A DNA stretch of 53,150 nt from an uncultured virus (IMG/VR IMGVR_UViG_3300028586_000785) (IMGVR_UViG_3300028586_000785), one strand, 5' to 3'; counted from the stretch's first letter, positions 21,411 to 51,641 are shown. The notes: a model not told the origin generated them from the letters alone. Program-made: numbers and translations.

Positions 21411-21511
21411 GAGGTGCCTTTCGTTCTGTCAAACCATTAGATGAACAGTATAGACACACAAGACGCAAAAGAGAAAGGGGCTGGATTTCTCCAACCCCTT
21501 TCCCAGGTGAT

Positions 21512-22272: not shown

Positions 22273-23013
22273 GTGAATAACGAACAAATCTCGCTAGAAG
22301 TAGTCAAGCGAACCGACCCAAGATACCAAGAGATCAGGAATCGCCATTACGTCGAGAACAACGGTACTCACGGTCAGCAGCTTCACTTCATCATTCACTA
22401 TAACGGCTCTGTCGTTGGCATCATTTCTGGAGCATCTTCTGTCTATGGTGTTGGGGCGCGAGATGAGTTCTTCAAGATCCCCAAGGACCAGAAACTAAAA
22501 CAGAGCCTCTACCTACCTGCAATCATCAACAACACGGTGTTTCGCCTAGAATTTCACGAGAAGAACTTGGCTACTCAGGTTCTCTCTCTGTGGCGTAAGG
22601 TATGCGCTCAGCTTTGGGAAGACATCTACGGTGTCAAAGTGCTGGGCTTTGAGACATTCGTTGTGGAAAACGACACTCGCAAGGGTGCTCTTTACAAGGC
22701 TGATAACTGGGACTACCTAGGTGAGACAAAGGGCAATACCAAAGCTCACACTAAGGGTGGGCTGACCGCGCAACACACAAGGTCCGAGACTGACAAGAAG
22801 CTCATCTATGCCAAGTGGGCAACTAAGCGACCCGCTACCCCAAAGATCCCATATGTGTCGTCTTGGCGACAGTCCACACCAGAGGAAAAAGCGCGAGCCA
22901 AGAACATCGTGGAATACAAGCGACGACTAGAAGGGTTGCACATCTCTGGCATCAGTGATGTGCCGTTGAAAGAGGGCGTGGCACCAAAAGAGTTTTTCGA
23001 TCTGTTCGCTTGA
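22273..23013 (+). CDS. DruA/DUF4338-like (Mom-related) protein
   Basis: RHY, RDEFF, IINNTVFRL, NLATQVL, ETFV, GALYKADNWDYLGETKG motifs. Confidence 0.65.
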   Translation: MNNEQISLEVVKRTDPRYQEIRNRHYVENNGTHGQQLHFIIHYNGSVVGIISGASSVYGVGARDEFFKIPKDQKLKQSLYLPAIINNTVFRLEFHEKNLATQVLSLWRKVCAQLWEDIYGVKVLGFETFVVENDTRKGALYKADNWDYLGETKGNTKAHTKGGLTAQHTRSETDKKLIYAKWATKRPATPKIPYVSSWRQSTPEEKARAKNIVEYKRRLEGLHISGISDVPLKEGVAPKEFFDLFA

Positions 23014-29210: not shown

Positions 29211-30410
29211 TTAGCCCTTGACGCAGAGCACTGTTCTGAGGTGCTGGACAACCTCAACGAGGTCAGACTGCGAGTCCATGACGTGCTTCAAGTCTTTGTA
29301 TGCTGCCGGAATTTCGTCCACAACACCCTGGTCCTTGCGTGACTCTACACCCTGGGTCTGAGCAATCAGATCTTCGACTGTGTACTTACGCTTTGCAGCG
29401 CTTCTGCTCATCCTTCGACCAGCACCGTGAGATGCCGACTGGAACGAGGCATCGTTTCCTAGACCTCGAACTACGTATGAACCAGTACCCATCGAACCAG
29501 GGATTAGTGCCACATCACCTAGTCCAGCACGAATAGCACCCTTACGAGTCACTAGCATCTCTTCGCCATCGATGATCTCTTCCGCAACATAGTTGTGGTG
29601 AACGTTAATCTCTTCGTCAAAGGTTACGGTCTTCTTGTCACCGTAGTGCTTACGAAGCGCCTCTCTGAACAAAGCCATCATGATAGAACGAGAGCGTAGA
29701 GCGTACTCCTGTGCCCACATAAGGTCGTGGCGGTAAGCATCCATCTCAGGCGTACCAGAGATGAATACTGCTAGGTCACGATCAATGAGGTCAGAGTTGT
29801 GAGATAGCGTCTGCGCGATACCAATGTGACGCTCGGCAAGAGACTTACCGACGTTGCGAGACCCAGAGTGAAGAGTTAACCAAACGACACCATCTTCATC
29901 GACACAGAGTTCAATAAAGTGGTTTCCGCCGCCGAGTGTGCCCATCTGAGAGTGAGCGCGACCTTCGACAGAAGCAGCGTCCTTGTGAAGGTTCTTGAAG
30001 TCATCCCAGAAGATATCCCAACCCTTTTCAAGACCAAGCTGACGTACATTGACATCCCTATCGTGACCTCGGAACCCCACTGGAATGGAGTTCTCAATCG
30101 ATGCCCTCAACTGAGGAAGGCGCTCTAGATCCTCTTCACGCAAGCTGGTCCGAACAGCAACCACTCCGCAACCAATGTCTACACCAACAGCGTTGGGAGA
30201 TACAGCCTGCTTCATGGCGATTACCGAACCAACAGTAGCGCCCTTTCCTACGTGGACATCAGGCATGACGCGAACGCCGTGAACCCAAGGCATCGATGAG
30301 ATGTTGCGCAACTGCTTGAGGGCATCCTGCTCAACTTCCCACTCGTTTGCCCACATGTGTACTGGTGACTTTGTTCCCCGAAGCTCTACCGGGAATCCTA
30401 ACTCGTTCAT
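29211..30410 (-). CDS. rtcB: RNA ligase RtcB
   Basis: MPDVH.G, VGVDIGCG, GTLGGGNHFIE, HSGSR, HHNY, PGSMG, SHGAGR, DEIP.AYK. Confidence 0.97.
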   Translation of the reverse strand: MNELGFPVELRGTKSPVHMWANEWEVEQDALKQLRNISSMPWVHGVRVMPDVHVGKGATVGSVIAMKQAVSPNAVGVDIGCGVVAVRTSLREEDLERLPQLRASIENSIPVGFRGHDRDVNVRQLGLEKGWDIFWDDFKNLHKDAASVEGRAHSQMGTLGGGNHFIELCVDEDGVVWLTLHSGSRNVGKSLAERHIGIAQTLSHNSDLIDRDLAVFISGTPEMDAYRHDLMWAQEYALRSRSIMMALFREALRKHYGDKKTVTFDEEINVHHNYVAEEIIDGEEMLVTRKGAIRAGLGDVALIPGSMGTGSYVVRGLGNDASFQSASHGAGRRMSRSAAKRKYTVEDLIAQTQGVESRKDQGVVDEIPAAYKDLKHVMDSQSDLVEVVQHLRTVLCVKG

Positions 30411-30537: not shown

Positions 30538-31035
30538 TTAGAGTGCGAACAGTGTTTCCATGTCATATCCAGTTGACGCGATCTCTCGCACCAAGACCTC
30601 CTGCTGGTAGACAGGTCTTGGCTGGAATCGAAGAGCCATGTTAGCTTCCTCGGGTGTCTTGTTGGACTTCTTACCGTTGCATGGCTGGCATGCAGAGATG
30701 AGGTTCATCCACGTGTTCTTACCTCCACGCGACTTAGGCTGGATGTGGTCAACTGTTCTAGCGTGCTTACCGCAGTAAGCACACGTGTAGTTGTCACGGA
30801 TCAAAACCTTCTTGAAGCGAGGCTGCATTTCACCGTTACGGTATGGCACCTTGACCATCTTGGTGAAACGAACAGCGATAGGGATGGGGAACTCACCGGA
30901 TGAAGTCTTCACCACAGCGCCTTCACGAGCACGGACGATTTCTACACGTCCCTTGAAAACATTGCTCATAGCCTTGTGGAGCGAAACGACACCAAGAGGC
31001 TCGTAACTTGCATTCAATACGATTACACCGGTCAT
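30538..31035 (-). CDS. HNH endonuclease at the distal end of the tRNA array
   Basis: RDNYTCAYCG...TVDHIQPKSRGG...NLISACQPCN; paralog of 21512-22048. Confidence 0.9.
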   Translation of the reverse strand: MTGVIVLNASYEPLGVVSLHKAMSNVFKGRVEIVRAREGAVVKTSSGEFPIPIAVRFTKMVKVPYRNGEMQPRFKKVLIRDNYTCAYCGKHARTVDHIQPKSRGGKNTWMNLISACQPCNGKKSNKTPEEANMALRFQPRPVYQQEVLVREIASTGYDMETLFAL

Positions 31036-32074: not shown

Positions 32075-32545
32075 CTATACCGACTTCTGCCAAATCATGA
32101 AGTCAGTACCAACGTAGTAAACAACGTGCGGGTCCACATGAGTTGCAGTGAAGCCAGACGTAGAGAGAATGTGTTGCATGGATTTTGAACCAGGGTGAAC
32201 ACTTGCGGTGAAGTGCTTTGTCCCAGATGCCATAGCATCTTCAAGCAGCCTATCAACTATCAATCGACCGATACCGTGACCCTTAGTGGATACGTAGACA
32301 CCCGAGATATATCCGGACGTTACGTCAATGAAGCCGGTACCGACAATCCGCTCACCATCTCTCGCGATGAGGCAGATACTTGAATCCAATTTTGCAAGTA
32401 CATCAGTAGGGCTGTACTCACCATCAAGCCATGCTCCAATATTGGGATGGTCAAGATGGGGCGAAGCCAGCGAAACACTGGCTACATGGTCGATAACAGA
32501 TTGAACATCTCCGACATTCATCGGAGTGATTACCAGATTGACCAA
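32075..32545 (-). CDS. GNAT-family N-acetyltransferase inside the tRNA array
   Basis: IVGTG...ISGVYV..KGHGIGRLIV acetyl-CoA motif A. Confidence 0.75.
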   Translation of the reverse strand: MVNLVITPMNVGDVQSVIDHVASVSLASPHLDHPNIGAWLDGEYSPTDVLAKLDSSICLIARDGERIVGTGFIDVTSGYISGVYVSTKGHGIGRLIVDRLLEDAMASGTKHFTASVHPGSKSMQHILSTSGFTATHVDPHVVYYVGTDFMIWQKSV

Positions 32546-33062: not shown

Positions 33063-33272
33063 TTAGTCCTCGTCGTAGACTGAAAAGTCAAACGTTCGAG
33101 GGAACGGGGTGAGGTTGTTGATGAAGGTGTCATCCTCCATGTTGTAAACCACACTACCCGACCGGTTGGCAGTGTTTTCGAGAATCTGACCCAACCTGAG
33201 TTGTGGGTTAGCCTTCCAATACCGACGTAGTTCGTCAAGTACCAGTTCGATGCGCTGTTCGTCTCTTGCCAT
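33063..33272 (-). CDS. small hypothetical protein
   Basis: GAGGA RBS; MARDEQRIELVLDELRRYWKANPQLRLGQIL. Confidence 0.65.
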   Translation of the reverse strand: MARDEQRIELVLDELRRYWKANPQLRLGQILENTANRSGSVVYNMEDDTFINNLTPFPRTFDFSVYDED

Positions 33273-33334
33273 GTGTTCCTCTTCCGTTGTGTTTCTGGAA
33301 GCATACACTGTGAGAGCATTCATCTGGATGTAAC

Positions 33335-33461: not shown

Positions 33462-33833
33462 CTATCTAGGCAACGAGGTTTCGAGATACATCTTCTGCAT
33501 CAATTCGGCAAAGAGTGCAACGAACTCGTCTTCGTCGAGAAAACCTGCGTAATCGTCACCTGTCACACCGTTCTTGAAAGTGACGTAATCACTCTCGGGT
33601 ACATGCCGAGCAGGACGACCAATTGTCAGCGAAGCGCAGTCGCTTCTAAATCGGAAATAGAACTGAGCATACCCAAGGTAAGTCCCTGTGGCTTGGAATG
33701 GTACTGCTCCACCAGCCCTCTCAAAAGAGAGACCAGGAAAGAGAGGTTCAATCCTGTCTTTTGCGACATCAATCATCTTGACAACAGGCTCGCTGTCATC
33801 GTTCTCATTCATATCTACACTGAGCATTGCCAT
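33462..33833 (-). CDS. hypothetical protein
   Basis: 123-aa ORF with GAGGGG RBS between tRNAs. Confidence 0.6.
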   Translation of the reverse strand: MAMLSVDMNENDDSEPVVKMIDVAKDRIEPLFPGLSFERAGGAVPFQATGTYLGYAQFYFRFRSDCASLTIGRPARHVPESDYVTFKNGVTGDDYAGFLDEDEFVALFAELMQKMYLETSLPR

Positions 33834-33981: not shown

Positions 33982-34191
33982 TCAATAGAACACATCGATA
34001 TCTGCATACGTACTAGCACCCCCGCTTGACGTAACCATGATTTCTACCGCATTGGATAGACACAGTTCGCAACATCCGACTTCTACCACCCTGGTATCGA
34101 ACGAGATACGCTCTTCATCACCAACAGTGAATCCGTTTTCTCTCAGAATTTCTCTACCCCATGCAATCAACAACGACGACGAATTCATCAT
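33982..34191 (-). CDS. small hypothetical protein
   Basis: 69-aa ORF with GGAAGG RBS. Confidence 0.4.
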   Translation of the reverse strand: MMNSSSLLIAWGREILRENGFTVGDEERISFDTRVVEVGCCELCLSNAVEIMVTSSGGASTYADIDVFY

Positions 34192-38010: not shown

Positions 38011-38580
38011 CTATATTATTACGTCAGGTTTGTTGCTTTCGAATGACAAGATGTATTCAATCGCATTCTGCATGATTACAACATCATCATTGAAAAAACC
38101 TAATCCTACATTGCATCCATGACAAAGAAGACCTCTAACAGCACCAGTTTTATGCGAATGATCAATGCAGGGCGGCTTTCCTATCTCAGCGAAACCGGTC
38201 TTGCAAATCAAGCAAGCAAAGTCTTGGGCTACTAGCATAGCTTCGTACTCATGGTACAGCAGACCATACTTAATAAGTATCTTTCTTGTACGCTCAGCCT
38301 CTGATGAAATAGACCACTCTACTCTTTTACTGTCTCGTCGGCATATCTTGCATCTGCTTTGGTACCCATCGCCTCGACCTCTATTGAAGTCGAATTCAGA
38401 TACATTCTTTACCAAACTGCATTTGCTACATAGCTTCGTAACCTTCTGTGTAGAAGTCTTTTTGTTCTGGTAAGACCTAGCACACTCTTTACATTTGGAA
38501 CTGTAACCAGACTTCCTTGTTTTATCTGGATAGAAGTCTGACGATATTTTGTCTGTTTTACATTTGTAACATCTGAGCAT
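38011..38580 (-). CDS. endonuclease VII-family (homing-type) nuclease
   Basis: CLIC...IDHSHKTGAVRGLLCHGCNVGLG; two N-terminal CxxC...CxxC repeats; visibly AT-richer than flanks. Confidence 0.85.
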   Translation of the reverse strand: MLRCYKCKTDKISSDFYPDKTRKSGYSSKCKECARSYQNKKTSTQKVTKLCSKCSLVKNVSEFDFNRGRGDGYQSRCKICRRDSKRVEWSISSEAERTRKILIKYGLLYHEYEAMLVAQDFACLICKTGFAEIGKPPCIDHSHKTGAVRGLLCHGCNVGLGFFNDDVVIMQNAIEYILSFESNKPDVII

Positions 38581-40020: not shown

Positions 40021-40111
40021 TGGAAACGGAGGCGGGATTTGAACCACTTATGCGCGTATGAAAGCCTCTAGGTTATGAGCCTAGCAAGATACCGAACTTC
40101 TTTACTCCGTA
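40021..40111 (-). tRNA. initiator-Met-like tRNA(CAT) with insertion in the variable/T region
   Basis: CTAGG-CTCATAA-CCTAG, U1.U72 mismatch, encoded CCA, ~14 extra nt before a mispaired T-stem. Confidence 0.6.
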
Positions 40112-45438: not shown

Positions 45439-45444
45439 TGGTAG

Positions 45445-45833
45445 TGGAGATGGCGGGAGTCGAACCCGCGTGTTGCTTGATAAGTCAAAATCTTCTACGT
45501 GCGTAGTCCATTTGGGGCGTTTATCGACTCTGGCGGGTTGGTATGGACACCGGCTCGCTATCGTCTAACTACCATGATTACGATACTTGCTACCCAGTAG
45601 TTAGGCGGCGTATCGGATTCCTCTTTGCTGATGCCTAGTTCCTGCCGTGAATCATTCTGCAATTGGAAGCTGAGACAGACTCCTTAGAGACCCTCAGCGA
45701 TTAAGCTGCGAGTGCGAAGTCGTTGCGAGATGCGTTTGCATTTCTTTTTGCCCGATGTGATTTACGTGGTCACCAGACAATCCACGGCACGCTTCCTTTC
45801 GCCTGTATCAACCAGTCGAAACCAAGCATCCCC
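45445..45833 (-). ncRNA. ssrA: tmRNA, tag (A)ANASRNDFALAA*
   Basis: 5' GGGGATGCTTGGTTTCGAC; 3' GCGGGTTCGACTCCCGCCATCTCCA; tag frame at 45701-45739. Confidence 0.95.
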
Positions 45834-48198: not shown

Positions 48199-48271
48199 TG
48201 ACGAAGGCGAGACTCGAACTCCCATGCACGAGTTTTCAGACTCGCTGGCTGACCAATTAGCCCACTTCATC
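48199..48271 (-). ncRNA. tRNA-like RNA with 8-nt anticodon loop (TCTGAAAA)
   Basis: GATGAAG/CTTCGTC-A, GGCT-AATTGGTC-AGCC, GCGAG/CTCGT, TTCGAGT T-loop. Confidence 0.65.
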
Positions 48272-48995: not shown

Positions 48996-49068
48996 TGCTT
49001 CCCGAGAATTTCGAAATCTCGACCCTCCGGTTAAGAGCCGGATGCTCTATCCTCTGAGCTAGAGAAGC
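48996..49068 (-). tRNA. tRNA-Lys(CTT)
   Basis: Cloverleaf. Confidence 0.9.
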
Positions 49069-49071
49069 GTA

Positions 49072-49221
49072 TGGTTGACGGTGTGGAATTCTCACCCACG
49101 AAGCTTCGTTCCTGAATCTACACGCTACTAGGAGTACGACTTCCTTTCACCCTTTCCTCAGTACTATGAAGCGCCGGTTTTACCAACCGGTGTATTTGTT
49201 TACGTCTTTACATAACCGTCT
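49072..49221 (-). ncRNA. CCA-ended tRNA-like RNA with expanded D and anticodon regions
   Basis: GACGGT/ACCGTC-AA-CCA, GCTTC...GAAGC stem, GTGGG-TGAGAAT-TCCAC T-arm variant. Confidence 0.5.
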
Positions 49222-49406
49222 TTCCCATTACTGGGAGGGATCGACCGTGTTAACCCGGTATGTGATTCCCTTTATCCATTGCTGGACATTTATGTGCGCA
49301 ATACAAAGTCTTGGGCGGGCTATCATTATCCCTTGTCACTTCCGTCTTTTCAAGCCAGTACGGAACTTTATATCGCTGTCCCCAGCTACGCGCGTAGTTG
49401 GGTTTG

Positions 49407-49489
49407 TGGCAAGTGAGGGATTCGAACCCCCGAAGTCTATTGACGGCTGATTTACAGTCAGATCCCTTTGGCCGCTTGGGTAACTTGCC
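49407..49489 (-). tRNA. tRNA-Tyr(GTA)
   Basis: Cloverleaf with long variable arm. Confidence 0.95.
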
Positions 49490-49583
49490 ATGCACGCAAA
49501 CAGGGAGCGACCCTATCCACTTCGAACATTACGCTAGTGTTCGCTACGTCTAGTTTCTCTCGCCGGAGTGACTAGCAAAGAGG

Positions 49584-49665
49584 TGGTAGCTGAGGGATTC
49601 GAACCCCCGCAGGCTTAGCCGTCGCGTTTACAGCGCGGTGTCGTTGACCACTTGACTAAACTACC
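49584..49665 (-). tRNA. tRNA-Tyr(GTA)
   Basis: Cloverleaf with long variable arm. Confidence 0.9.
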
Positions 49666-49916
49666 ATTACTGATGAGAACGACAACCAAGTCCTTCATTT
49701 TGAGCCATTGGCTATATAACGGCATGTTGGCTGCCGCCCTCATCAAACCTTGTCGTGCCTCCCTCGCTCCGAAGAGCTTGTGATTATACGATAAGGAGTG
49801 GAATAGGTTTTGGCGACCTATTCCCTTTCTTTATCCACTGTGTAGTTGCCAAGATGGGTAAGTTTCTACCCACATAACCTTCCTAGCATCTTCGTTTCCT
49901 CCGCTAGGGGGTTTTG

Positions 49917-49989
49917 CAGGGATGACAGGACTTGAACCTGCAACACCCGGTTTTGGAGACCGGTGCTCTACCAATTGAGCTACATCCCT
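49917..49989 (-). tRNA. tRNA-Trp(CCA), first tRNA of the array
   Basis: Cloverleaf. Confidence 0.95.
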
Positions 49990-50038
49990 ATATTGTGTTG
50001 TGTCTTGCTTTTCTGTGTTTCTCGGTTGCTATAGTTCT

Positions 50039-50067
50039 AACTTAGCAGAGCTTCGTAACCGTGTCAA
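50039..50067 (-). promoter_or_regulatory. sigmaA-type promoter just before the first tRNA
   Basis: TTGACA-17-TAAGTT. Confidence 0.65.
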
Positions 50068-50141
50068 GCTATTTCCAGAAATTCTTTGAGAATCTTTTTC
50101 GTGGTGCTGGTGGTGCTGTGTTTGTTGCTGGTGATACATGC

Positions 50142-50187
50142 AAAAAGCCGGGAGTCCCCGTGCTTTCGCTTTGGGTGACTCCCGGCT
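50142..50187 (-). terminator. intrinsic terminator / candidate attenuator hairpin
   Basis: AGCCGGGAGTCACCC-AAAGCGAAAGCAC-GGGGACTCCCGGCT-TTTT. Confidence 0.8.
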
Positions 50188-50215
50188 AATTATGCCTTGG
50201 GTAGGTTCAATGATC

Positions 50216-50371
50216 CTACTTGTCGAGTACACCTCCGACGAAACCGCTATTCAATTGACCAAGCTTATAGGCTGGTGTTGCAATATCTGAGCACACGGGG
50301 GACTGCCATTTCTGAGCAGCAACGAGCGTACGCTGTTCAGCGTGTCCGTTCGTAAATAGCTGCTTCATCAT
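50216..50371 (-). CDS. candidate leader peptide (51 aa, contains all 20 amino acids)
   Basis: AGGAG RBS at 50382-50386; MMKQLFTNGHAEQRTLVAAQKWQSPVCSDIATPAYKLGQLNSGFVGGVLDK*; below the ORF-track cutoff. Confidence 0.55.
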   Translation of the reverse strand: MMKQLFTNGHAEQRTLVAAQKWQSPVCSDIATPAYKLGQLNSGFVGGVLDK

Positions 50372-50442
50372 GTGCGATGTGCTCCTGGGTTAGGTCAAGT
50401 GTTCTTGACGGTTTAGTGTGAGGCGTTTTACCCTACGTGTAG

Positions 50443-50471
50443 AGACTACACACATCAAAGTGTGTTTGCAA
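50443..50471 (-). promoter_or_regulatory. promoter upstream of the leader ORF
   Basis: TTGCAA-17-TAGTCT with extended TG. Confidence 0.55.
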
Positions 50472-50621
50472 CCGTTTTCGGAAACTTTCTCGAAAAACTT
50501 TTGCGAGGTGTCTCTGTACCTCTTATTACTAGTGTGGTGGTAACCACCGACATCCTCAATGGTACCACACTTGTTTCGGCTCTGCCACACCATCTAGCAG
50601 AGCCGAAACCTAGTGCATTCT

Positions 50622-51641
50622 CTACGAGAGAGTTACGTCCACCTTCGAGAAGTCCTGCTTGGTGTGTGAACCTCGGCGGGTGATTGTGGCTGCATCTAGC
50701 GCACGATCCTTGTCAAGCGTATAGAGGAACGAGTCGTCCTCGTTGAGAGCCATCCAGACTGTCTGGGAGGGATTAGCCTTGTGACCACCACCGGCAAAGG
50801 CATCTTCAAATCCTCCGCCAGCCTTCTGCTGGAACATACGACCGTAGTTGCTATCCATATTCTCTCGTCCATGCTCAAAGGAAGCAATGGCTGGTGCAAC
50901 GTTGGGACCAACAAAGTAGACCGTACGTTCAACGCCATTTATTTCAGCCTTGTGCTCAGCATACTGAAGCTCAGGTGCTTCTCTCATCTGACGAATAGCC
51001 TTAGGGATAGCCCCGTACTCATATTCACTGGAACCCATGTACTCAAATTCGTAGTAAGCACCGAATGTATCTGGCTTGTCCGTGTCGTCCTTGGTCTTTC
51101 GATTGAGAATCTGGGAGGTGTAGAAGAGATTGCTTTCATAAAGAGAGTCACTCTTGAAGTCAACAGACTTCGTGACCGGACCATTGATCACATCGTCAGT
51201 TGTGGCATCGACAGACTCAAATCCCGGAACGGAGGGAACGGCGAAGTCGCTGTACATTTCATCGTCTCGACCCGTGATGGTCAGAATCTTTTCGGCAATT
51301 TCTCTTCTCTTGGCTGCGTCTGCACCAAAATGGTCATTGATGGAGTTGAATAACGCATCTGAGAGCTTACCGAAATAGGGGGTATCCGTATCCAATAAAC
51401 GCTTGACCTGACCCCAGTCGTAATCCACCCCTCGCTTCTTGATAGTTGCACCCTTTTCCTTGTACAACTCACCGATAGCGGTACGAACCGCACGCTGGTA
51501 GGAAGGGGCGGGTGGCTTAGACGCAACCGCGCTCACACGCGATGCTGCCGAAGAGGCACCCTTGTTGAGGTTCTTGTGCACGGTGGTGCTCTTACCGTTC
51601 TTATCAACAATCGACGTTGCTACAGTGTTTGGTGAAGTCAT
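50622..51641 (-). CDS. hypothetical protein with N-terminal IVDKNG motif
   Basis: TSIVDKNGKSTTVHKN; C-terminal domain with FEYMGSSEYEYGAIP. Confidence 0.75.
   Translation of the reverse strand: MTSPNTVATSIVDKNGKSTTVHKNLNKGASSAASRVSAVASKPPAPSYQRAVRTAIGELYKEKGATIKKRGVDYDWGQVKRLLDTDTPYFGKLSDALFNSINDHFGADAAKRREIAEKILTITGRDDEMYSDFAVPSVPGFESVDATTDDVINGPVTKSVDFKSDSLYESNLFYTSQILNRKTKDDTDKPDTFGAYYEFEYMGSSEYEYGAIPKAIRQMREAPELQYAEHKAEINGVERTVYFVGPNVAPAIASFEHGRENMDSNYGRMFQQKAGGGFEDAFAGGGHKANPSQTVWMALNEDDSFLYTLDKDRALDAATITRRGSHTKQDFSKVDVTLS

Follow-up and report, generated by a model that had tools for sequence, protein, structure and literature searches.

A conserved 51-codon reading frame and a strong terminator at the head of a viral tRNA array: a separate small gene is more likely than a sensor of tRNA shortage

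The DNA analysed here, which we call the window, is a stretch of 53,150 nucleotides from an uncultured virus (IMG/VR IMGVR_UViG_3300028586_000785). Its minus strand carries a large tRNA array that runs from 49989 down to 31106 and comprises 67 tRNA genes and one tmRNA (68 genes in the ARAGORN list). The array is flanked by phage-type genes that code for RtcB, HNH and endonuclease VII nucleases, RNase H, dUTPase, a DNA methyltransferase and a DUF2637 protein. RtcB is closest to Microbacterium phages (57-58% identity), and the DUF2637 and HA-domain proteins suggest an actinobacterial host. Protein genes also sit in the gaps of the array, among them genes for a GNAT protein and an endonuclease VII and ORFs of 69-123 aa.

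The DNA comparison was made with one relative, a 202,737-base IMG/VR record that IMG/VR classes as a provirus. The order of upstream gene, unit, second promoter, tRNA-Trp and two tRNA-Tyr genes is the same in this relative, and the succession promoter, Shine-Dalgarno sequence (SD), ORF, stop hairpin, terminator and array is kept in both of the two DNA copies. A blastn search of the phage GenBank collection with 49900-50700 matched only the tRNA-Trp, and tblastn searches of the same collection with the peptide and with its 339-aa neighbour gave no match. Scans of genome collections for more relatives returned nothing, and further viral scans gave no new relative, their returns being the relative contig already known or the spurious locus L007, which matches over 11 residues only and is without tRNAs. 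The metagenome locus L003 was likewise spurious, since it lies inside a larger frame and is without tRNAs, and the tRNA-Trp neighbourhood of Arthrobacter phage Atuin was set aside as not comparable.

Between the gene for the 339-aa protein and the tRNA-Trp, the minus strand holds the series of features collected in Table 1. The promoter-like site P2 sits between the terminator and the array, about 75-100 nt beyond the terminator. An earlier note had interpreted this region as a leader-peptide attenuator, and its inventory of parts was accurate: the promoter hexamers of P1, the AGGAG ribosome-binding site (RBS), the 51-codon ORF, the strong U-tailed terminator towards the array and, entered there as a caveat, a second promoter after the terminator are all present on the minus strand.

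Table 1. Features between the upstream protein gene and the first gene of the tRNA array
Feature	Position	Strand	Identity to relative	Remarks
13-bp hairpin without U-tract	50573..50609	-	51%	After the stop (50622) of the 339-aa gene; upstream edge of the conserved unit
Block with TGGTACCAT (50567-50559) and repeated GTGGT(T)ACCA motif	50523..50570	-	81-89%	Contains the candidate promoter P0
Small hairpin GAGGT...ACCTC	50505..50522	-	44%	
Promoter-like P1	50443..50502	-	60%	A/T-rich upstream motif, then TTGCAA (50471-50466), 17 nt, TAGTCT (50448-50443); relative: TCGACA-17-TATTCT
5' UTR	50372..50442	-	75%	5' hairpin 50436-50418; conserved hairpin GTCAAG-AACA-CTTGAC 50409-50394
RBS AGGAG	50386-50382	-		10 nt before the ATG
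51-codon ORF (stop included)	50216..50371	-	87%	Encodes MMKQLFTNGHAEQRTLVAAQKWQSPVCSDIATPAYKLGQLNSGFVGGVLDK; family of seven peptides
Long-range helix, 5' strand	50353..50375	-		Start codon and first ~6 codons; pairs with 50253-50229
Long-range helix, 3' strand	50229..50253	-		About codons 40-48, L-N-S-G-F-V-G-G; overlaps the 'antiterminator' of the earlier note (50233-50225)
Hairpin GUAGG...CCUAC with the UAG stop	50201..50219	-		Relative: GUAGA...UCUAC
Intrinsic terminator	50142..50187	-	89-91% (41/46 positions)	11 + 3 bp stem, GC-GAAA-GC mini-hairpin cap, then UUUUU
Promoter-like P2 for the array	50039..50098	-	60-72%	Same upstream motif; TTGACA (50067-50062), 17 nt, TAAGTT (50044-50039); relative: TTGACA-17-TACATT
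tRNA-Trp(CCA)	49916..49989	-	96%	First gene of the array

The terminator is the strongest of the 11 minus-strand sites in the window that combine a hairpin with a T-run (dG <= -14). Its 41-nt hairpin folds at -28.6 kcal/mol and, in a context of 60 nt, at -34.0 kcal/mol (z = -6.7 against shuffles); with a G+C-rich hairpin followed immediately by a U-tract it has the make-up of an intrinsic (Rho-independent) terminator. On our best reading, the ORF, the terminator and their surroundings are the core of a self-contained transcription unit of ~0.3-0.4 kb, which would run from ~50550 (or 50436) to 50142.

Comparison with the relative showed that conservation is distributed unevenly over the region. 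The blastn match begins at 50569; identity is 37% at the end of the upstream gene, 36% in the spacer from stop codon to terminator and 30% in the spacer from terminator to P2, against the values for the ORF and the terminator given in Table 1. Within the ORF dN is 0.10 and dS 0.32 (dN/dS 0.30), with 82% identity at third positions, and codons 38-51 have no third-position change between the two DNA copies. The upstream 339-aa protein is 56% identical, with a dS of 3.6. Because third positions of the ORF are 82% identical compared with 30-36% for the spacers, and because dS in the upstream gene is 3.6, the ORF is constrained as a nucleotide sequence besides its coding frame. We rejected an overlapping antisense gene as the cause of this synonymous constraint, because the antisense frame is interrupted in the relative; in both DNA copies the sense frame alone stays open. 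The terminator is conserved in its sequence, GNRA-capped loop included, unlike a comparison terminator of the same element at 21470, which drifts with compensatory changes and is ~70% identical by hand count. Membership in a repeated terminator family was rejected as the reason for this conservation, because the unit is unique both in the window and in the record of the relative.

Three other hairpins keep their stems through sequence change. At 50573..50609 both arms have wholly changed and the 13-bp stem is still kept; at 50505..50522 a two-sided change (U-A to C-G) maintains the stem around a diverged loop; and in the stop-codon hairpin a G-C pair has become A-U in the relative, with an unrelated loop and a surrounding spacer that is only 36% identical.

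The ORF uses 38 distinct codons (37 in the relative), and all 20 amino acids have appeared in its peptide by residue 35, as the earlier note had reported. The most frequent residues are Q, L, G and A, with five scattered occurrences each, and no runs of regulatory codons were found within the 51 codons. A complete set of residues is also present in 9 of the window's 117 mechanical ORFs of 45-57 aa. When the first 51 codons of mechanical ORFs 51-70 codons long are taken, 4 of 113 stretches have it; among 51-codon windows drawn from the 26 long ORFs, 5 of 678 do, and for random peptides of protein-like composition the figure is 2.1%. These frequencies bear out the caution in the earlier note that such a set can arise by chance: in a single sequence of ~51 codons it is uncommon, not rare, and only moderately unusual. 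At least 38 distinct codons were found in 5 of the 678 real-gene windows, which places the ORF in the top 0.7%, and in 6.2% of the mechanical ORFs.

Searches of libraries of 5.8 and 1.8 billion proteins yielded a peptide family of seven members, all of 50-51 aa, that was seen in one small lineage only; an 814-aa protein (P0007) was discarded as a chance repeat match. Eight columns are invariant in the seven peptides (M1, A11, W22, S24, L40, N41, G46 and G47), and the blocks FTNGHA, KWQSP and QLNSGFVGG can still be recognised in members of only 39-47% identity. Frame, length and ends are kept in all seven members down to 39% identity, and in P0005 an internal insertion of two residues is balanced by a C-terminus that is two residues shorter. 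The retained length of 50-51 aa, the invariant columns, the conserved blocks and the offset insertion in P0005 support translation, and the ORF is a conserved and very probably translated frame. The 51-aa peptide matched no PHROGs family, the seven members matched no Pfam family at E <= 1, and an atlas search with the peptide gave no usable match; the AlphaFold model of the peptide (pLDDT 57.7) was too poor for a fold search. The peptide is non-hydrophobic, and none of its stretches would span a membrane.

The full set of 20 residues is found in five of the seven members, the divergent P0005 and P0006 included, and P0003 and P0008 are without Cys. Cys occupies three different columns across the family, with a new position in P0005 and P0006, and His has moved in P0005. 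When the positions that differ from the window peptide were redrawn from three to four backgrounds, the chance of a complete set was 2-8% for P0005 and 3-10% for P0006, figures that come from two lineages in a family where one clade lost Cys and that hinge mostly on the assumed frequency of Cys. As an out-of-sample test, this retention gives limited support to the idea of the earlier note.

The 301-nt RNA is predicted to fold at -106.8 kcal/mol, compared with -80.8 +/- 4.9 kcal/mol for shuffles (z = -5.3). Its long-range helix (50375-50353/50253-50229) has a predicted energy of -26.2 kcal/mol against -16.3 +/- 3.5 for shuffles (P 0.004) and, in the relative, of -22.0 kcal/mol (P 0.056); the change of codon 3 from AAG to CGA preserves two of its pairs. 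Since the start-codon region is held in this helix by codons 40-48, ribosomes probably have no access to the finished RNA. The hok mRNA of a type I toxin-antitoxin system and the MS2 maturation gene are also closed by long-distance pairing and are translated only when nascent or after processing. The unit resembles them in that the start region of a small ORF pairs with a distant segment, in a structured and apparently stable RNA.

Substitutions between the two copies break fewer pairs than expected (30 versus 41.9, P 0.0025); two-sided changes number 3 in 105 consensus pairs, which is at chance level (P 0.45). Since single-sequence global folds transfer poorly between the copies (of the variable pairs, 30 of 44 in the window's fold and 31 of 40 in the relative's are broken in the other copy), we relied on local helices only. 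Searched against Rfam at E <= 10, the stretch 49000-51000 returned 13 matches; only four, all tRNAs, were above threshold, and no leader, T-box or sRNA family was found. A T-box, which the sequence GGUGGU(U)ACC in 50570-50523 had brought to mind, was dropped because no model matched and because the block lies ~350 nt from the terminator.

Upstream of both P1 and P2 lies a common 37-nt motif, present in the window in just these two copies against 0.00 expected, and P2 has consensus promoter-like hexamers that are conserved in the relative. Tandem P1-P2 promoters with A/T-rich upstream elements are well known from the E. coli rrn operons, where they precede rRNA and tRNA genes. Here, too, two similar promoter-like sites with a shared motif stand in tandem before a stable-RNA operon; unlike in rrn, an ORF and a strong terminator lie between them, and contigs from RNA libraries start upstream of P1. 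A consensus scan found no plus-strand promoter-like site within the unit.

Part of 49800-50700 was present in 24 listed sequencing runs, 22 of which are on record as RNA. In all four of the runs examined, contigs cover the unit (50130-50536, 50094-50520, 50185-50539 and 50212-50541), which thus appears in RNA-library contigs as a discrete piece of 330-430 nt, the contigs themselves showing neither strand nor true ends nor RNA versus DNA origin. Their upstream ends (50520-50541) lie ~85-105 nt beyond the expected start of P1. It follows that the RNA would begin upstream of the P1 start and that P1, which the earlier note had named as the promoter, is not the sole start. For the upstream start we infer either P0, a candidate extended -10 promoter at TGGTACCAT that is conserved in both copies, or transcription that continues past the hairpin without U-tract at the end of the upstream gene. 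At the other end, the X2 contig extends 48 nt beyond the U-tract and an X1 contig reaches 21 nt upstream of the expected start of P2, so some read-through of the terminator is possible. Among the pieces listed, none joins the unit to the tRNA-Trp; uncovered stretches (50054-50129 in X1, and most of the upstream gene) were given no weight.

The reading that we tentatively prefer, with confidence that stops a little short of even, is a small-protein gene that stands on its own within a highly structured RNA, with a terminator that insulates the tRNA operon. It is the best reading because of the conserved downstream promoter, the protein-like peptide family, the ordinary quality of the complementarity to the terminator described below, and the competing long-range helix. 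The protein genes in other gaps of the array offer a precedent. The unit would consist of one or two promoters, a long structured 5' UTR, an SD, the 51-codon gene, the stop hairpin and the strong terminator, and would belong, as a small-protein gene in its own right, to a large actinophage-like element. Its RNA is discrete and, to judge by the RNA-library contigs, easily detected. By ending transcription from upstream, the terminator would insulate the tRNA operon, which would start at its own consensus promoter, P2. The long-range helix would close the finished RNA and so leave nascent or remodelled RNA as the main template for the peptide.

Several observations count against this reading. 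The constrained RNA sequence would be unusual for a plain protein gene, and the conservation of the terminator as a sequence, loop included and unlike that at 21470, also speaks against it. A plain small protein gives no reason for the retained set of 20 residues. The lack of a family, fold or atlas match for the peptide, together with its poor AlphaFold model, also weighs against it, as does the possible read-through seen in the X2 and X1 contigs.

A ribosome-mediated attenuator, the proposal of the earlier note, is in our view unlikely, and a separate mini-gene is more likely than a sensor of tRNA shortage. Under the attenuator, smooth translation of the leader would lead to a stop at 50142, stalled ribosomes would allow read-through into the array, and P2 would supply basal transcription only. 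The ORF would then be a pan-amino-acid test ORF in which selection keeps one copy of each amino acid, and read-through into the array of 67 tRNAs would act as a homeostatic sensor of decoding capacity on top of P2, a proposal that we hold to be equally doubtful. The attenuator is kept alive by the strong conservation of synonymous sites and of the terminator sequence, and by the amino-acid set, which stays complete in five of the seven peptides in spite of the moves of Cys and His. RNA switches that share their sequence with a reading frame typically combine a maintained frame with frozen synonymous sites and a frozen terminator, and the order of elements kept in both DNA copies, the high codon diversity and the X2 contig that goes beyond the terminator are in its favour as well. 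On the other side are the conserved consensus promoter between terminator and array, the two family members without Cys, and the eight invariant columns, which resemble those of a functional peptide.

The two complementarities described in the earlier note do exist, with duplex energies of -8.8 and -14.9 kcal/mol, but they are no better than chance or are lost in the relative. When the 13-nt 5' arm of the terminator was compared with the 237-nt upstream RNA, the best duplex was the segment that the note had singled out, at -10.6 kcal/mol, against -13.8 for shuffles (P 0.96), and the whole 5' arm against the 30 nt ending at the stop codon gave P 0.22-0.42. The apical 8 nt of the arm against the 30 nt before the stop gave P 0.002-0.011, for a half that was chosen after the fact. 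In this post hoc case GGUG.ACUC, located 7-17 nt ahead of the stop codon, can form a duplex of -10.7 kcal/mol with the arm's apical half; it lies where a terminating ribosome would cover it, a point for the attenuator. The pairing with the 3' arm reaches -19.6 kcal/mol (P 0.04) in the window and -13.5 kcal/mol (P 0.6) in the relative, and since it involves the strand made last, it could not pre-empt the hairpin and would be mechanistically irrelevant. For the 5'-arm pairing both partners are invariant, hence no covariation is seen. Of the conservation that the earlier note had asked for, the short ORF is kept with the full set in five of seven peptides, but no covariation of terminator and antiterminator was found.

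The supposition that a stall would free the antiterminator is not supported. An equilibrium simulation, in which a 30-nt ribosome mask was stepped along the ORF on nascent RNA, gave an antiterminator probability of <= 0.08 at every sampled codon of the window; in the relative it was 0.3 and rose to 0.56-0.89 only at codons 36-41. A stall at any codon, as the note had it, would also exceed the geometry, which at best covers stalls in the first ~10 codons. The antiterminator segment has competing partners in the start region, through the long-range helix, and in the 5' UTR. The alternative fold lies above the terminated fold by 4.2 kcal/mol (171 nt) to 11.0 kcal/mol (101 nt) in the window and by 6.3 to 12.4 kcal/mol in the relative, and the small differences at 171 nt (4.2 and 6.3) are in favour of a switch. 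Known antiterminators are also weaker than their terminators, so that energy alone is compatible with switching. As a whole, the attenuator reading retains the conserved ORF, the structure overlapping it and the retained amino-acid set, and loses ground on the pairings, the stall simulation and the downstream promoter.

The attenuators closest to the unit are the leader peptides of amino-acid operons, namely trpL and hisL and the multivalent thrL and ilvL of E. coli and Salmonella. The unit shares with them the order of promoter, SD, short ORF and terminator, structure over the ORF, and a segment near the stop that is complementary to the 5' arm. It differs from them in having no regulatory codon runs, and instead 20 amino acids and 38 codons; in its length of 51 codons, which exceeds that of known leader peptides; in an antiterminator at chance level, without covariation and without an Rfam leader match; and in a conserved predicted promoter between the terminator and the genes that would be regulated, here tRNAs.

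Less probable again is that the RNA itself is the product, a stable structured RNA with a regulatory or dual function, acting in trans or binding protein and made from tRNA-type promoters, with the ORF being secondary. The low energy of the 301-nt fold and the constrained synonymous sites would agree with this, as would the smaller than expected number of broken pairs, the hairpins kept by two-sided changes, the GNRA-capped terminator conserved with its loop, the presence in RNA libraries of many runs and the promoter motif common to the unit and the tRNA promoter. However, a frame, length and ends maintained in seven of seven members at such divergence are rare for an untranslated RNA, Rfam gave no match, most variable pairs of the window fold break and two-sided changes stay at chance level. 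Several dual-function RNAs that also encode a peptide are known, such as RNAIII/hld, SgrS/SgrT and SR1/SR1P. The unit is similar to these in being an RNA of ~0.3-0.4 kb with both coding and nucleotide constraint and a strong terminator, and differs in that its ORF spans half of the RNA and in that it has no known target or base-pairing region.

A translation-locked prophage mRNA of the type I toxin kind, closed and stable, activated by processing and checked by an antisense RNA, is very improbable, for although the long structured 5' UTR, the start closed by a long-range helix, the strong terminator, the small ORF in a stable and detectable RNA and the provirus class of the relative would suit it, the peptide, unlike that of hok, is non-hydrophobic and without a membrane span, the consensus scan gave no promoter for an antisense partner within the unit, and the antisense frame is broken in the relative.

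Judging by the openings of the respective abstracts, tRNA arrays are known in mycobacteria, in their phages and in other viruses (PMC5966550, PMC6409571). The array studied here is similar to them in that dozens of tRNA genes stand together in a block carried by a mobile or viral element, to which a tmRNA and a nearby RtcB are added here; it differs in the leader unit at its head, of which the abstract openings of those two papers make no mention. Phage tRNA arrays are seen, as far as titles and abstract openings tell, as tools against tRNA-cleaving host defences and against codon mismatch (PMC10264068, PMC11464382, PMC11555353). Literature on the attenuation of phage tRNA genes was not found among the titles and abstract openings surveyed.

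We know of no account of how phage tRNA arrays are switched on. If it is true that the unit gates the array, this would be a new use of attenuation, as a general sensor of translation capacity. If the unit is a separate gene, it would still be a conserved and expressed small-protein or RNA unit, and the unusual double constraint on its peptide and its RNA recommends it as a compact subject for functional study.

Comparison of the window with its relative, the syntenic IMG/VR record, showed that the similarity between the two drops sharply at the hairpin that follows the stop codon of the upstream 339-aa gene. The 13-bp stem of this hairpin is kept in the relative, although both arms are wholly different in sequence, and the drop in similarity may mark a mosaic joint. 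Strain variants were found in the RNA-library contigs at positions 50430, 50479 and 50510 (run X21), the first of them also in run X1, and all three lie within the 5' UTR and promoter region. These contigs do span the 51-codon ORF, and none of the variants listed from them falls inside it. Among the first tRNA genes of the array, the tRNA-Trp/tRNA-Tyr spacer and the spacer between the two tRNA-Tyr genes show 78-87% identity to the relative, whereas the spacers flanking the terminator show 30-36%. Both conserved spacers are spanned by RNA-library contigs, and they may hold processing signals or more small RNAs.

Features of the array and its surroundings (window coordinates)
Feature	Position	Strand	Remarks
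Hairpin	50573-50609	-	Directly 3' of upstream gene's stop; 13-bp stem without U-tract
tRNA-Trp/tRNA-Tyr spacer; tRNA-Tyr/tRNA-Tyr spacer	49666-49915; 49490-49581	-	Conserved
tRNA, isotype uncalled	48199-48271	-	Two-base 'anticodon' (ga); ARAGORN
tmRNA	45444-45833	-	Within tRNA array; tag ANASRNDFALAA
tRNA-Met(cat)	40021-40111	-	91 nt; far longer than array's other Met genes
Protein genes in array gaps	32075-32545; 33063-33323; 33462-33833; 33982-34191; 38011-38580	-	
HNH nuclease gene	30538-31035		
RtcB RNA ligase	29211-30410	-	57-58% to Microbacterium phage RtcB
246-aa protein	22273-23013	+	Match to Druantia defence protein DruA (PF14236, E 2.6e-12)

The tRNA of uncalled isotype lies immediately upstream of a tRNA-Asp gene, and its position in the relative is occupied by a 72-nt gene called as tRNA-Leu(taa) (L002 4765-4836). 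The long tRNA-Met(cat) gene may contain an insertion or an intron. Of the protein genes in the array gaps, one encodes a GNAT acetyltransferase and one an endonuclease VII-like protein, while three are ORFs without family match (86, 123 and 69 aa). Genes for an RtcB RNA ligase and an HNH nuclease are found at the array's distal end, in keeping with a tRNA repair kit. A DruA-like protein is also encoded inside this phage-like element.

The window's 51-codon ORF product, P0001, was recorded from 14 contigs, the longest of 805,269 bases, and the corresponding peptide of the relative is carried on a contig of 654,127 bases. IMG/VR classifies the relative's record (G001) as a provirus. A chromosome or a very large replicon may carry the element as an insertion.
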